From the IMG/VR virus record IMGVR_UViG_3300027708_000013: DNA of 64,000 nt; one strand, given 5' to 3'. Origin of the DNA: a virus. Lineage: Duplodnaviria > Caudoviricetes. Both the position numbers and the translations under genes were made by a program. The first letter of the stretch is position 1. Each line of letters starts with the position of its first letter. The notes under the pieces are model-generated. The model had not been told where the DNA came from, searched no databases, and worked only from the letters and a program-made list of their open reading frames with translations. Below, piece after piece: positions 46,591 through 52,889 of this stretch.

Positions 46591-46618
46591 AAAAAACCCG
46601 CCGAAGCGGGTTCTGCTA
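46591..46618 (-). terminator. Intrinsic terminator after tmRNA
   Basis: AACCCGC-TTCG-GCGGGTTTTTT. Confidence 0.85.
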
Positions 46619-46921
46619 TTTTTGGTAATAAGGTATAACTACCCCAGAGATCATGCCGCTAGGGCGTAAACCTCATCATTAGATGCGTTTGCATTTATCG
46701 ATTTGCTTGATTTACAGTCATCGCCTACTGTGTTGCCGTCTCCATTACCTACCCCTGTCGAAACCATGGCTGGCCCATCAGAAGAAAACTCAGATCCTTT
46801 CACGGTTGGCTCCATTACTGGTTGGCCGCAGTATGCATCCTGCTGAATTTTCTTTTGGTGGACCAGGCGGGAGTCGAACCCGCGTCCAGAAGTCCTTCAC
46901 TTTGAAGGAATTACAACAATT
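46591..46921 (-). ncRNA. ssrA: Circularly permuted (two-piece) tmRNA
   Basis: T-arm and acceptor 3' end GGGTTCGACTCCC...CTGGTCCACCA (ending 46856) precede the 5' end GGGCCAG (46776). The acceptor stem has a G3-U70 pair. Tag ORF 46691-46650 encodes ANASNDEVYALAA*. Confidence 0.92.
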
Positions 46922-46924
46922 CTT

Positions 46925-47071
46925 TTAATTATAACCACGTATGACATTGTTGTCAATGGGTGGATTTGATCTTGCCAATTCTCGTTTAACAGCTTCTTGA
47001 TGTTGCTGTTCTTTTTTCTGCTTGTTCTGTTCAAACTTCTGAAGTATCACAACTTCTTCTTTGTGTGGCAT
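46925..47071 (-). CDS. Small charged helical protein (48 aa)
   Basis: Manual translation MPHKEEVVILQKFEQNKQKKEQ...GYN*, downstream of TAAATA. Confidence 0.5.
   Translation of the reverse strand: MPHKEEVVILQKFEQNKQKKEQQHQEAVKRELARSNPPIDNNVIRGYN
46928..46956 (-). promoter_or_regulatory. Perfect consensus sigma70 promoter for tmRNA
   Basis: TTGACA-17-TATAAT. Confidence 0.88.
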
Positions 47072-47095
47072 AGTATAACTATTTAGTATAGATAA

Positions 47096-47369
47096 ATGCA
47101 GGAGTGTCGTATTTCGGAGTCTTCCGCTAAGAAGTCCTTAACCATTGACACGGTTATGTCAGGACTGTGTGATGGTCCACTCAGCCCGCCTAGTCAACAC
47201 GTCTGTCAACGATACCCGTAGTTTCCTCTCCTACACTTACCTATACTAGATAGGATCCCGGGGGGTTCGAGTCTCACCGGGGTCGACATGCAAGTTTTGT
47301 AGACGTTGTTTCAAGCGAGCGAATTTCTTCGCCTCTACCGGAAGGCATCTCCCTTTCGCTGATACCGGC
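47096..47369 (-). ncRNA. Candidate structured non-coding RNA of unknown class
   Basis: About 270 nt ORF-free, GC-richer interval with several predicted hairpins and a long-range closing stem. Confidence 0.5.
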
Positions 47370-47705
47370 TTATTCGCCCATTACTTCCTGTGCAATAGCA
47401 CGAGCCTTAATGGCTTCTAAACTTGGCTTGGCAATTTTGGTCTTGGTTGACTTGACCACTGCTGAACCGTTGTACTTTTCATCAGCGGCATCAATCGCGG
47501 CACGATAATCTGCATTGGCATACAACTCAGTACCTTTTAAGAAAGTTACCAACTCGCCTTTGGTCATTGCTGAAGGCAAATCCATAAGATTGATATCGCT
47601 ATCAGTTTTTGCCAAGATTTTAACACGAGTCATGTCATTCGCAAAACGAACTTTGTACTGACCTTGAGTCTTGCTAACACCACCTACTTTGAACTGTTTG
47701 TCCAT
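47370..47705 (-). CDS. Early hypothetical protein
   Basis: AGGAG RBS; promoter TTGACC-17-TACAAT at 47765-47793. Confidence 0.7.
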   Translation of the reverse strand: MDKQFKVGGVSKTQGQYKVRFANDMTRVKILAKTDSDINLMDLPSAMTKGELVTFLKGTELYANADYRAAIDAADEKYNGSAVVKSTKTKIAKPSLEAIKARAIAQEVMGE

Positions 47706-49995: not shown

Positions 49996-50032
49996 ATTAT
50001 AGCAGTTGGGGAATTATGGGTCAACCAAAATT
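49996..50032 (-). promoter_or_regulatory. sigma70 promoter with operator-like palindrome
   Basis: TTGACC-17-TATAAT; near-identical to 58016-58050. Confidence 0.8.
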
Positions 50033-52170
50033 TACATTGTAAACAAGGGTCCGGACAGCACACGGGCACTGTCTTCCACACGTAAGTGACGGTTCAAGTT
50101 TTCAATGAACTTGTCTGTCATGTCTCGATTTCTATAGTATCTTGGGAATATGTGTACTTCAACAGCATCATCGCCTTCCAACTGCAACACCGCTGTCATT
50201 CTATTTCTTCCTTCATGCTGACTCACCTGTGCAGGTTCTGAGAAATCGCCCTGACTCCATGCATCGGGAATGTCCACTGTTAAAAATGGCGAAGCAATGG
50301 CTCCACCGTCGGCAATGTATCGCATGATGGTGGATCGATGGAAATCATTCAAGGGAGCTGCTAACTTCAAGAACACACTGGGTCGCATTTTGACACGCAG
50401 GCCAAAATAGTCCACCTCCATGTTGTGTGGTACAACACCGGCGCCACTGTTGTTGTCAATAACAACTTCGTTGACTGTATTGCTTTGTGATATACGAAAT
50501 ATCGAATACAATATGGGATAGTCATCACTGCCTGTTATGCCTTGTTTGATAGGCTGACCACCGTTTTCTCTAGCAACAAAATCGGCAAACACCTGTTGGA
50601 AAACTTTTTCTGGATCTTCTTGGTAATCACTGCTGGTTTGACAGTCATCTGTAAATCCTTCAAAATGCACACGATATTCACCAAATTCTTCAACTCCAAC
50701 GTCATCGGGAGTAAGCTCGCCAATGAACTCTTCAATTTCCTTCCAATCCATGGTGGATTCTGTTATTTCCTCATCTCCATCAACATCTTCTCTACCTGTG
50801 ACATGTATGTCTCTAGCATGGAATGGAATCCAATCTCCCAGTCTGGGATCATGGATGCTGTCGTAGCCTTGTTCGATCAGACTTGCATATTTTTGCAACA
50901 TATCGTTTGGCTCATCTTTGCCCTTGACAATCACATAGGGATTTTTACATGTCAATGTGGCACTGTATACATAACCATCAGCACCACCTTGTGTGGCATA
51001 GTACTCAGCAGTGTCTCGATCTTCGGTCCACCACATGGGTGTGATTAATTCTCTATGTATGCCACCTTGGTTGCCGTGATACACTGTGACCGGGGCAACT
51101 GCTTGTTCGTTCAACTGCATCTGTTTGGCCACCGCAGTAGCCCGTTCCACGTCCTGCATGTCAAAGGGCTTGAGTTCACCACGCCATATCAGTCGTTTGA
51201 TTTCAGCCCAGTCCATGTCAACAAATTGTGTATCTTCCACACCAACCTCATTGGGGCCCACTAGTTGTTGTTCTGAATCAAATCTTCCTCGACAATCGTA
51301 AGCGGCACCATCGGGAGCCACTGCATACACATGGTCAACTCTATAGTCGTCATCGTCTTCGGCATCTTCATCCCAACCTATGTGGGCACGTAGTTGCCAG
51401 TCTGGGTGTATTCTTTTCAATGCCAGAGCCATCACATGGCAGTGACCCCTCATGTAGTCTTGTTTAGATTCCTTCAGGCTCAATGCTGAATCCTGTTGAT
51501 TTAAATAGGCTTGGTTGAGCTGATCTAAATAACCTTGATTGCGTAGTATTTTAAATGCTAGATTCTCAACACCAAATTCTCCTTCACGGTCCAGGCCCGA
51601 TCTACGCATGATGCGAAGTCGATCTCTAATACGTTTTAAATCCGCAGGATCATCTGCTGTGGCAATGGCCACTGTGATTTGTTTGATGAGATCGGTCACT
51701 TTGGCATTCACTGCTGTGTTGTTGATTGTAGGTGGATTGTATTCAGGTTCTTTGATCCAAGCATCGTTGAGTAAACTGTATACTCCGCCCGACACCGGTG
51801 GGGTGGCTGTATCTTCTATGTACAATTCCACTTCATGTCCACGTATGGAGATGTCGTGTTGATTGTTCCAGATATCTTTTTTGGCACGGTATAATGCTTC
51901 TGCAACATCGTCACATTGCAAGTCATTATAGTTGGTGACCACATGCAGGTCAAAGTCCGAATATTGTGTATAGTTGTAGTTGGCCATACTGCCGGTCAAC
52001 ACTATGTCCTGCACTTCAAAGTTGGGTATTTCTAAATAATGTTCAAATATTTCTGCAATCTTCAACAGGTGTTCACGCACTTCGGGTCTTAGATCATTGC
52101 CACGCCAGGCCACTGGGTTCAACTGTTGATGATAGGCTATGTTGCGTTTGACGAAATCTCGAGCTCGCAT
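50032..52170 (-). CDS. Multi-domain (polyvalent) protein: Pol-beta nucleotidyltransferase, Cys/His domain, ADP-ribosyltransferase-like domain, acidic domain, ParB-like domain
   Basis: TGS...SDFDLHV; GHC..MA...HV; VYHG...WWTEDRDTAEYYA...VY; HEGRNRMTA. Confidence 0.7.
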   Translation of the reverse strand: MRARDFVKRNIAYHQQLNPVAWRGNDLRPEVREHLLKIAEIFEHYLEIPNFEVQDIVLTGSMANYNYTQYSDFDLHVVTNYNDLQCDDVAEALYRAKKDIWNNQHDISIRGHEVELYIEDTATPPVSGGVYSLLNDAWIKEPEYNPPTINNTAVNAKVTDLIKQITVAIATADDPADLKRIRDRLRIMRRSGLDREGEFGVENLAFKILRNQGYLDQLNQAYLNQQDSALSLKESKQDYMRGHCHVMALALKRIHPDWQLRAHIGWDEDAEDDDDYRVDHVYAVAPDGAAYDCRGRFDSEQQLVGPNEVGVEDTQFVDMDWAEIKRLIWRGELKPFDMQDVERATAVAKQMQLNEQAVAPVTVYHGNQGGIHRELITPMWWTEDRDTAEYYATQGGADGYVYSATLTCKNPYVIVKGKDEPNDMLQKYASLIEQGYDSIHDPRLGDWIPFHARDIHVTGREDVDGDEEITESTMDWKEIEEFIGELTPDDVGVEEFGEYRVHFEGFTDDCQTSSDYQEDPEKVFQQVFADFVARENGGQPIKQGITGSDDYPILYSIFRISQSNTVNEVVIDNNSGAGVVPHNMEVDYFGLRVKMRPSVFLKLAAPLNDFHRSTIMRYIADGGAIASPFLTVDIPDAWSQGDFSEPAQVSQHEGRNRMTAVLQLEGDDAVEVHIFPRYYRNRDMTDKFIENLNRHLRVEDSARVLSGPLFTM

Positions 52171-52889
52171 TATTGACCTAAATTAAATCGCATGCCAGTG
52201 GCTTGTTCCACTGCAGACACAGGTACTTGATAATTGGGCCAACTGGTTGCTGGAACAATCGGTGCATTTGGCATCAGGTATGCTTGTACCTGGCCGCTGT
52301 TCTTTTCAATGATGATCTTATACAAACGTGTGGGAATTCCTAAGCCATTGCCCACCGTAGGATGATCTTGATCAAATACACCACCGGAGATGATGTAGAA
52401 ATCTGTGCCCGGAGTCATGGCCCATTGGCGTTCAGCTGTTTCCAGCAAGCGCCATCCACCTCTGTTGTTGTTTGCATTTTGAGCCACCATGTTTGATAAG
52501 TTAAAACTCTCTGACATGATGGCATCGTTTTGTGTGTTGTTACCAGCCGGCGCCATGTGTCCTCTATCATGTGTCTTGCCAACCACAGCATAGTCGGCCA
52601 GGCTGGCACTGCATTCCGGAGTCACTGCGGCATCGGGGTGGAAGTTATCTCGACGTTTTGCTGGACCGGTCATTGCGGCTATGGTTAAATGCTCAAACAC
52701 TGCTATGGGGGCCTTGACACTACAACGATGGATCACAGCATAGTTCATGTGGCAAATTTCTTGATCTCCGGGCTGTGCTCGATATTGCGGAGTTCCGTTC
52801 ACAGTGAACTGCGGGCATTGGGCATTGATCTGTGCTTGCGCCAGTCCTGTTGCAACTAGTAAAACAAGTGCTAATAAAAACTTTTTCAT
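52170..52889 (-). CDS. DNA/RNA non-specific endonuclease (NucA type) with signal peptide
   Basis: DRGHMAPA, NMVAQ, NNRGGW, GIPTRLYK. Confidence 0.92.
   Translation of the reverse strand: MKKFLLALVLLVATGLAQAQINAQCPQFTVNGTPQYRAQPGDQEICHMNYAVIHRCSVKAPIAVFEHLTIAAMTGPAKRRDNFHPDAAVTPECSASLADYAVVGKTHDRGHMAPAGNNTQNDAIMSESFNLSNMVAQNANNNRGGWRLLETAERQWAMTPGTDFYIISGGVFDQDHPTVGNGLGIPTRLYKIIIEKNSGQVQAYLMPNAPIVPATSWPNYQVPVSAVEQATGMRFNLGQ

Follow-up and report, generated by a model that had tools for sequence, protein, structure and literature searches.

Two Adjacent Structured RNA Genes beside the tmRNA Gene of a Large Phage

The ORF-free stretch that lies upstream of a permuted tmRNA gene in the window, by which we mean the whole 64,000-nucleotide stretch of phage DNA that was analyzed, consists of two structured non-coding RNA genes that adjoin and are independent of each other. 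Both are on the minus strand, with a family B1 gene (47250-47362) preceding a family A gene (47082-47250). The two families are confined to phages, where they occur in contigs of uncultured phages, and they are absent from Rfam. The best explanation of these genes, to which we assign a probability of about 60%, is that they encode stable RNAs, which host RNases would release and which would bind a specific partner in trans.

The locus and its two RNA genes

The window appears to come from a large lake phage with nearly all genes on the minus strand. Read along that strand, a promoter-like site (47793-47765) is followed by a 111-aa ORF, the ORF-free stretch (47369-47072), a 48-aa ORF, the tmRNA gene, and a terminator, and the site scan listed no terminator-like site between 47765 and 46612. 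The initial annotation had called the stretch an ORF-free, GC-richer segment on the minus strand, and this description holds: 47072-47369 contains no minus-strand ORF of ≥30 aa, and its GC content is 0.51 compared to 0.33-0.41 in the flanks. Folding relative to shuffled sequence was better for the minus strand only (z -2.93; plus strand, z -1.13).

The 111-aa ORF belongs to a large group of homologues (621 clusters), in which every name given by the sources is "hypothetical protein", and it is syntenic with the tmRNA gene in 29 phage contigs. L-numbers below denote IMG/VR loci, 29 of which were retrieved with the 111-aa protein, most of them with a permuted tmRNA gene downstream. The 48-aa ORF keeps a C-terminal NPxIDxNxxKGYN motif in L001, L003, L297, and L298, and its A/U-rich leader (ACUAAAUAG..ACUAUG), which is devoid of a Shine-Dalgarno sequence, is conserved in the same four loci; its 3' end overlaps the tmRNA promoter. 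Searches of ten neighboring ORFs against Pfam and PHROGs found no RNA-related partner. Three kb upstream of the RNA locus, a 712-aa ORF (50032-52170, minus strand) has an N-terminal nucleotidyltransferase domain (NTP_transf_2, PHROG 36119) and adjoins a gene for a non-specific DNA/RNA endonuclease (52170-52889).

The stretch had been described as a single structured RNA of about 270 nt. This description fails, and the whole 298 nt can be ruled out as one RNA, because other phages have the two parts apart from each other and in differing orders. Separate modules were suspected first because pieces of the stretch recur in L001, L003, and L005 in different orders; the 5' module, B1, aligns with L003 and L005, and further phages with this module were found by motif scan. 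A scan of both strands against Rfam, which the initial annotation had proposed as a check, gave no match to the RNAs of the stretch above threshold. At gathering thresholds, Rfam 15 matched only the tmRNA in the whole window, and a search of 46900-47500 and of L005 at E up to 10 added a sub-threshold mascRNA match alone. Blastn and megablast searches of 50,697 records of cultured phages left three family A members and the window region unmatched, and scans of 185,579 prokaryote genomes with strict core motifs, which can miss divergent copies, found neither A nor B1. Thus, the earlier proposal of a novel ncRNA stands, in the form of two conserved, covarying families free of Rfam 15 matches, whereas its alternative of a ribozyme finds neither a known family nor a marked cleavage site in its favor.

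Table 1. Coordinates of the two RNA genes, their helices, and the neighboring features in the window
Feature	Position	Strand	Evidence or remark
111-aa ORF, function not assigned	47370..47705	-	Upstream context; promoter-like site outside this span, 47793-47765
Family B1 RNA gene, ~113 nt	47250..47362	-	Model R2, 65.5 bits, E 3.9e-12; 8 nt past stop codon of 111-aa ORF
B1 P1, encloses P2 and P4	AGCGA 47360-47356 with UCGCU 47318-47314 (span 47314..47360)	-	Covariation
B1 P2 hairpin, GGGAG-AUGC-CUUCC	47340..47353	-	100% of cells paired; 3/5 pairs compensatory
B1 P3, candidate pseudoknot, crosses P1	GUAGA(G) 47338-47333 with (G)UCUAC 47304-47299 (span 47299..47338)	-	Conservation
B1 P4 hairpin, GCGAA-GAAA-TTCGC	47319..47332	-	Stem kept, loop not
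B1 P5, 3' hairpin	47254..47284	-	5/7 pairs compensatory
Family A RNA gene, ~165 nt	47082..47250	-	Model R1 (window among its seeds), 167.2 bits, E 4.8e-41
A P1, closing stem	47246-47240 with 47092-47086; 47238-47228 with 47104-47094 (span 47086..47246)	-	18 pairs
A core, P2-P5	47157..47218	-	Conserved core and covariation
A P2	47218-47216 with 47153-47151	-	Core helix
A P3	UAUC with GACA	-	Core helix
A P4 hairpin, GACG loop	47210-47193	-	100% paired; 4/7 pairs compensatory
A P5 hairpin	47187-47162	-	Core hairpin
A pseudoknot	ACCAU 47176-47172 (P5 loop) with AUGGU 47145-47141 (span 47141..47176)	-	Outside model R1
A second domain: P6, P7, P8, UUAGCG loop, then AAAU	47106..47149	-	10/10 pairs compensatory
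48-aa ORF	46925..47071	-	Start 11 nt past end of family A match (47082)
Permuted two-piece tmRNA	46591..46970	-	Rfam beta_tmRNA 157.8 bits, tmRNA_permuted 138.5 bits; also Aragorn
tmRNA's own consensus promoter	46956-46928	-	Site scan
tmRNA terminator	46612-46595	-	Site scan

Covarying folds of families A and B1

A MAFFT alignment of four copies of family A gave a consensus fold of 49 pairs, in which compensatory changes were already present at 20/49 pairs, the long-range stem included. The covariance model built from these four copies (R1) was run on loci fetched by the core motif and gave ~50 full-length matches, with scores of 58-178 bits. On the window, R1 scored 167.2 bits for the minus strand compared to 20.9 bits for the plus strand, but because the window is one of the four seed sequences of R1, these scores express a strand preference and not independent membership. 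Assignment of family A to the minus strand is supported by its many G-U pairs, which would become C-A mismatches on the opposite strand.

Among 44 distinct family A sequences, 95.9% of the pair cells hold standard pairs, compared to 68% in column shuffles and ~40% when partners are slid, and changes on both sides of a pair, which compensate each other, occur at 40/49 pairs; like all pair counts here except those for the pseudoknot and the four-sequence MAFFT alignment, these were made on alignments fitted to the models. Analysis of mutual information put the same helices on top, and the extra contacts it indicated were subfamily-linked signals only. The closing stem P1 has compensatory changes at 18/18 pairs and 97.5% of its cells paired. 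A 9-bp long-range pairing proposed by the initial annotation (47236-47228 with 47104-47096) was correctly seen and lies within this 18-bp stem, which covaries in relatives. The pseudoknot, whose downstream strand is the segment preceding GCU/GUU, shows 94.5% of cells paired and compensatory changes at 4/5 pairs family-wide. The P3 helix of the window contains one A-C mismatch. By contrast to the long-range pairing, the stems CCTAT/ATAGG, GGAC/GTCC, and TAACCG/TGGTTA that had been read from the window have to be given up, because their bases are used otherwise in the covarying fold (P1, P5, P7/P8, P2, and the pseudoknot).

Because members had been fetched through the first core motif, part of the core was bound to appear invariant, and a second anchor, placed in P5/J5-3, was used as well. 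It brought in 35 further distinct members, in which GGUAUCGU and the GACG loop are almost unchanged. The near-invariant core of family A comprises GGUAUCGU, the GACG loop, ACU, CUGAYAYAAC, and AAAU, all of which are present in the window. One copy (L128:3504-3668) carries a one-base deletion and a substitution in GGUAUCGU (GGUAA-GU) and still scores 140 bits. The family numbers at least 79 distinct sequences, all of them from contigs of uncultured phages. We conclude that the fold of family A has a long closing stem and two helical domains that a pseudoknot connects, and that its core is near-invariant.

Family B1 is small and rare, with at least ~15 distinct sequences, of which a metagenome scan added at least two. 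The window was left out of its covariance model (R2), whose sequences come from 8 other phages, and the match in the window spans model positions 1-120. The score of 65.5 bits, compared to 86-127 bits for other members, marks the window as a divergent member, and the B1 copy in L297 scores 65.3 bits. Across 13 B1 sequences, 94.4% of cells are paired, compared to 80.6% in shuffled alignments and ~40% in slid ones, and compensatory changes occur at 15/31 pairs. Variants of P1 in relatives include AGCGGA/UUCGCU, AGUGAG/CUCACU, and AGCAAC/GUUGCU. The GNRA hairpin that the initial annotation had noticed at 47319-47332 is a conserved helix and corresponds to P4 of B1. The gathering of homologues and the covariation analysis that had been suggested as checks on the initial reading yielded relatives in other phages and compensatory pairs in both families.

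Two further contacts in B1 are candidates. The strands of P3 are nearly invariant in the 13 sequences, with 96% of cells paired and one compensatory change, and the window has one G-G mismatch in this helix; a loop-loop contact (AAGU with ACUU) is conserved without covariation and is absent in the window. Both the P3 pseudoknot and the loop-loop contact are possible, as suggested by conservation rather than covariation. The window lacks the typical B1 loops, since its P2 loop reads AUGC and not AAGUGC, and its P5 loop reads UGAGACUCGAACC and is not of the CCCAAAACC type; it shares the short P2 loop with L189. At other sites, B1 lies exactly between two tRNAs (L129) or directly after a stop codon, and it sometimes ends in a U-run. 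Such a U-run after P5, resembling an intrinsic terminator, is found in L127 and L135.

The hairpin at 47254-47284 had attracted attention for the T-loop-like appearance of its plus strand. The helix itself is conserved, as P5 of B1, but its T-loop look is restricted to this phage. A tRNA minihelix or att site on the plus strand was rejected because homologous hairpins have no T-loop on either strand, and the mascRNA score of the plus-strand hairpin (22.4 bits) is below the gathering score of 42.5. The P5 loop of relatives, read on the minus strand, is of the UGAGACUUCCCAAAACC type, which implies that the resemblance to tRNA on the plus strand is a coincidence of this phage. RNase P RNA was likewise rejected: no RNase P model matched at E up to 10, and the GAGGAAAC segment sits in a linker that is absent from most relatives. 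The segment GAGGAAACTACGGG, which had been compared to an RNase P motif, falls in a linker that varies among relatives or is missing from them, and the comparison is withdrawn. On neither strand did an Rfam model of a known self-cleaving ribozyme class match at E up to 10.

Genomic company, gain, and loss

Family A is found mostly inside tRNA arrays, with as many as 23 tRNA genes at distances of 2.5 kb or less. At 40/44 family A loci, tRNA or tmRNA genes lie within 2.5 kb of the RNA, and all 392 of these genes (392/392) are on the strand of the RNA. In 22/44 loci, no more than 10 nt separate the closing stem from the start of the next tRNA, and in 8 loci a tRNA ends within a few nucleotides before the closing stem. 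Each of five long contigs contains one copy of family A. The window, L001, L096, and L106 have family A beside a permuted tmRNA gene instead of a tRNA array, and in the contig of L096 (G004), where family A is beside the tmRNA gene, the tRNA array is ~94 kb away. The window contains no tRNA gene, and its family A gene is 137 nt upstream of the tmRNA gene on the same strand, according to the Aragorn coordinates. No protein gene was found that consistently accompanies RNA A or B1.

A close relative of the window, L297, encodes a 111-aa protein 89% identical to that of the window and has the same B1-plus-A order, and the differences between the two are largely compensatory. From the window to L297, P4 of B1 changes from GCGAA/UUCGC to GCGAU/AUCGC (A-U to U-A), and its GAAA loop is replaced in a GCGAU-CAUAG-AUCGC form. 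In family A, P1 changes from AGG/CCU to UUG/CAA, P4 changes from GAC/GUU to GGC/GCC, and an A-U pair of the pseudoknot becomes G-C (GCCAU/AUGGC). By contrast, L298, which encodes an 88%-identical 111-aa protein, is without both RNAs, while the flanking genes and the leader of the 48-aa ORF are kept. The comparison of L297 and L298 implies that the RNAs are under structural selection where they are present, and yet are accessory cassettes. We conclude that both RNAs behave as cassettes of gain and loss in a cargo hotspot between the conserved 111-aa gene and the tmRNA gene.

In L001-L029, the interval from the 111-aa ORF to the tmRNA gene is hypervariable, ranging from 5 nt (L025-L029) to ~1.9 kb (L004). 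Its cargo includes a GIY-YIG-like 256-aa ORF (L020), membrane- or porin-like ORFs (L006 and L007), small ORFs, and non-coding sequence. Where the RNAs are missing in L298 (2840-2900), there is a terminator-like hairpin together with a tandem TATTGGTAT repeat; this repeat, possibly the scar of a deletion, resembles the 5' strand with which the closing stem of family A begins in L001. Immediately past the stop codon of the 111-aa ORF, a 41-nt element is 88-95% identical among L005:3337-3380, L007:3334-3374, and L096:1391-1431, phages that are otherwise diverged. A third, GC-rich module of ~215 nt, B2, follows B1 in L003 (3660-3885), L005 (3640-3850), and L128 and is not in the window; blastn finds it again at many loci with tRNA arrays (L032, L058, L068, L075, L077, and others), and Rfam gave no hit to it at E up to 10. 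L133, L172, and L182 share a GC-rich element (GCUCCGGAC...GGGGGUAGUGUCC...) directly after B1, which may be another RNA module.

Proposed role and comparison with known systems

Both RNAs would be transcribed from the promoter-like site together with the 111-aa gene, and possibly with the tmRNA too. We infer co-transcription with the 111-aa gene because no terminator-like site was detected until after the tmRNA gene. The RNAs would be excised by the host enzymes responsible for maturing tRNA and tmRNA. In the case of array members, an RNase P cut at the 5' end of the next tRNA would free the RNA. RNase P cannot set the RNA ends in this phage, because its RNAs lie between two protein genes and not between tRNAs; here, a cut at the closing stem, which we assume to be made by RNase III or RNase E, would free the RNA instead. 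Once released, the RNAs would persist and have their effect in trans, each through a specific partner. This partner would most likely belong to the apparatus for translation or RNA processing, whether the host's or the phage's, or else to a host defence aimed at this apparatus; translation, RNA processing, and related defences are proposed because of the tie of the RNAs to tRNA and tmRNA genes.

It is unlikely that the RNAs are instead cis-acting processing or insulator elements, whose closing stems would serve as RNase III or RNase E punctuation that separates and protects the tRNA, tmRNA, and mRNA segments around them in a polycistronic transcript, and whose excised piece would be functionless. 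The closing stem lies 0-10 nt from tRNAs in many loci and, in the window, stops ~10 nt short of the start codon of the 48-aa ORF, a placement consistent with such a role. However, each genome has one copy compared to as many as 23 tRNA genes within 2.5 kb, the near-invariant inner core and covarying pseudoknot would be superfluous for punctuation, and L298 manages without both RNAs while its neighboring protein genes are kept. A riboswitch-like leader that regulates the 48-aa ORF or read-through into the tmRNA in cis seems to us very unlikely. Such a leader would fit the start of the ORF within ~10 nt of the 3' strand of the closing stem in the window and L001, as well as the U-run after the last B1 hairpin in L127 and L135, which has the look of an aptamer with a terminator. 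But the majority of family A members have tRNAs as neighbors and lack a downstream ORF, another RNA and not the ORF comes after family A in L003, the ORF leader is conserved in L298 even though that phage is without the RNAs, and after the B1 copies with a U-run the next gene has its own promoter. Both the cis-processing and the leader readings are disfavored by the single copy number, by the conserved core, and by the prevalence of members flanked by tRNAs.

Phage tRNA genes are thought to counter defences that target tRNA. RNAs A and B1 could be anti-defence decoys that mimic a host or phage RNA or bind a host immune protein, such as a tRNA-targeting nuclease, and so guard the translation supply of the phage. 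We hold this to be quite unlikely, even though the families are restricted to phages, are located beside tRNA or tmRNA genes, and are gained and lost between close relatives in the manner of accessory counter-defence cargo. Neither RNA has a hairpin like an anticodon arm (5-bp stem and 7-nt loop) or a T-arm, no defence-related partner was found, and a decoy would be a special case of the trans-acting reading rather than a separate anatomy. A role of family A as a ribozyme, which would cleave itself or the flanking tRNA or tmRNA precursors, is highly improbable. Its compact, two-domain, pseudoknotted fold with ~25 near-invariant unpaired or junction nucleotides could suit catalysis, and the RNA ends coincide with tRNA ends; yet RNase P and 3' trimming account for these ends equally well, a search at E up to 10 matched no known ribozyme family, and the borders contain no conserved candidate dinucleotide for cleavage. 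A long shot, finally, is that family A may be a new RNA machine attached by large phages to their tRNA or tmRNA genes, either a ribozyme or a high-affinity RNA ligand, which would act directly on the maturation of tRNA or tmRNA or would shield these RNAs from host nucleases. If this were true, family A would be a phage-encoded, RNA-only modulator of the translation apparatus.

We prefer the reading of two genes for stable, trans-acting RNAs, and several aspects of family A make it of wider interest. The purpose of the tRNA arrays of large phages is still debated, and to our knowledge, the long-known passengers of these arrays are only T4 RNAs C and D, GOLLD, and ROOL, with a function assigned to none. 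Family A tracks tRNA and tmRNA genes even when these are far apart, which indicates that phages keep small folded RNAs tied to their translation RNAs. A length of ~165 nt is suitable for structure determination, pull-downs, and ribozyme assays, and the window and L297 compared to L298 provide a natural pair with and without the RNAs. For genome annotation, such "gaps" deserve to be called as RNA genes.

Known systems offer partial parallels. The RNase III processing stems around 16S and 23S rRNA and the early RNase III sites of phage T7 are long duplexes between the distant flanks of a stable RNA that is embedded within a polycistronic transcript. They are a plausible model for the cutting of the A closing stem in this phage, as an analogy for this one step only, and they differ in that the RNAs they enclose have known functions. 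The T4 species 1 and 2 RNAs (rnaC and rnaD) are reportedly co-processed with tRNAs. Like families A and B1, they are small RNAs that accompany phage tRNA genes: in the annotation of AF158101, they are stable RNAs encoded where the tRNA cluster of T4 ends, on the same strand as the tRNAs. Unlike A and B1, which have no T-arm, T4 rnaC ends in a tRNA-like T-arm (GGGTTCGAATCCCGG). Homology to rnaC and rnaD was rejected, as R1 run with filters off gave nothing above 10 bits in the T4 tRNA region.

GOLLD and ROOL are ornate RNAs of phages and prophages that are often beside tRNA islands, with which they may share a transcript (PMC5737381; PMC12286853). Compared to A and B1, they are three to five times larger, they assemble into homo-oligomeric cages, and bacterial chromosomes and prophages encode them too; their Rfam models have no match in the window. 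In Y RNAs (YrlA), some of which are encoded by phages, the two ends of the RNA, 5' and 3', form a long stem around a structured module (PMC4201824). Y RNAs have a tRNA-like module and function together with Ro60/Rsr, whereas family A has neither a T-arm nor a D-arm and no Rfam Y-RNA match, and no Ro60 gene is among the ten neighboring ORFs scanned. The likeness between Y RNAs and family A resides in their architecture, in which the paired ends of the RNA form a long stem that closes a complex module.
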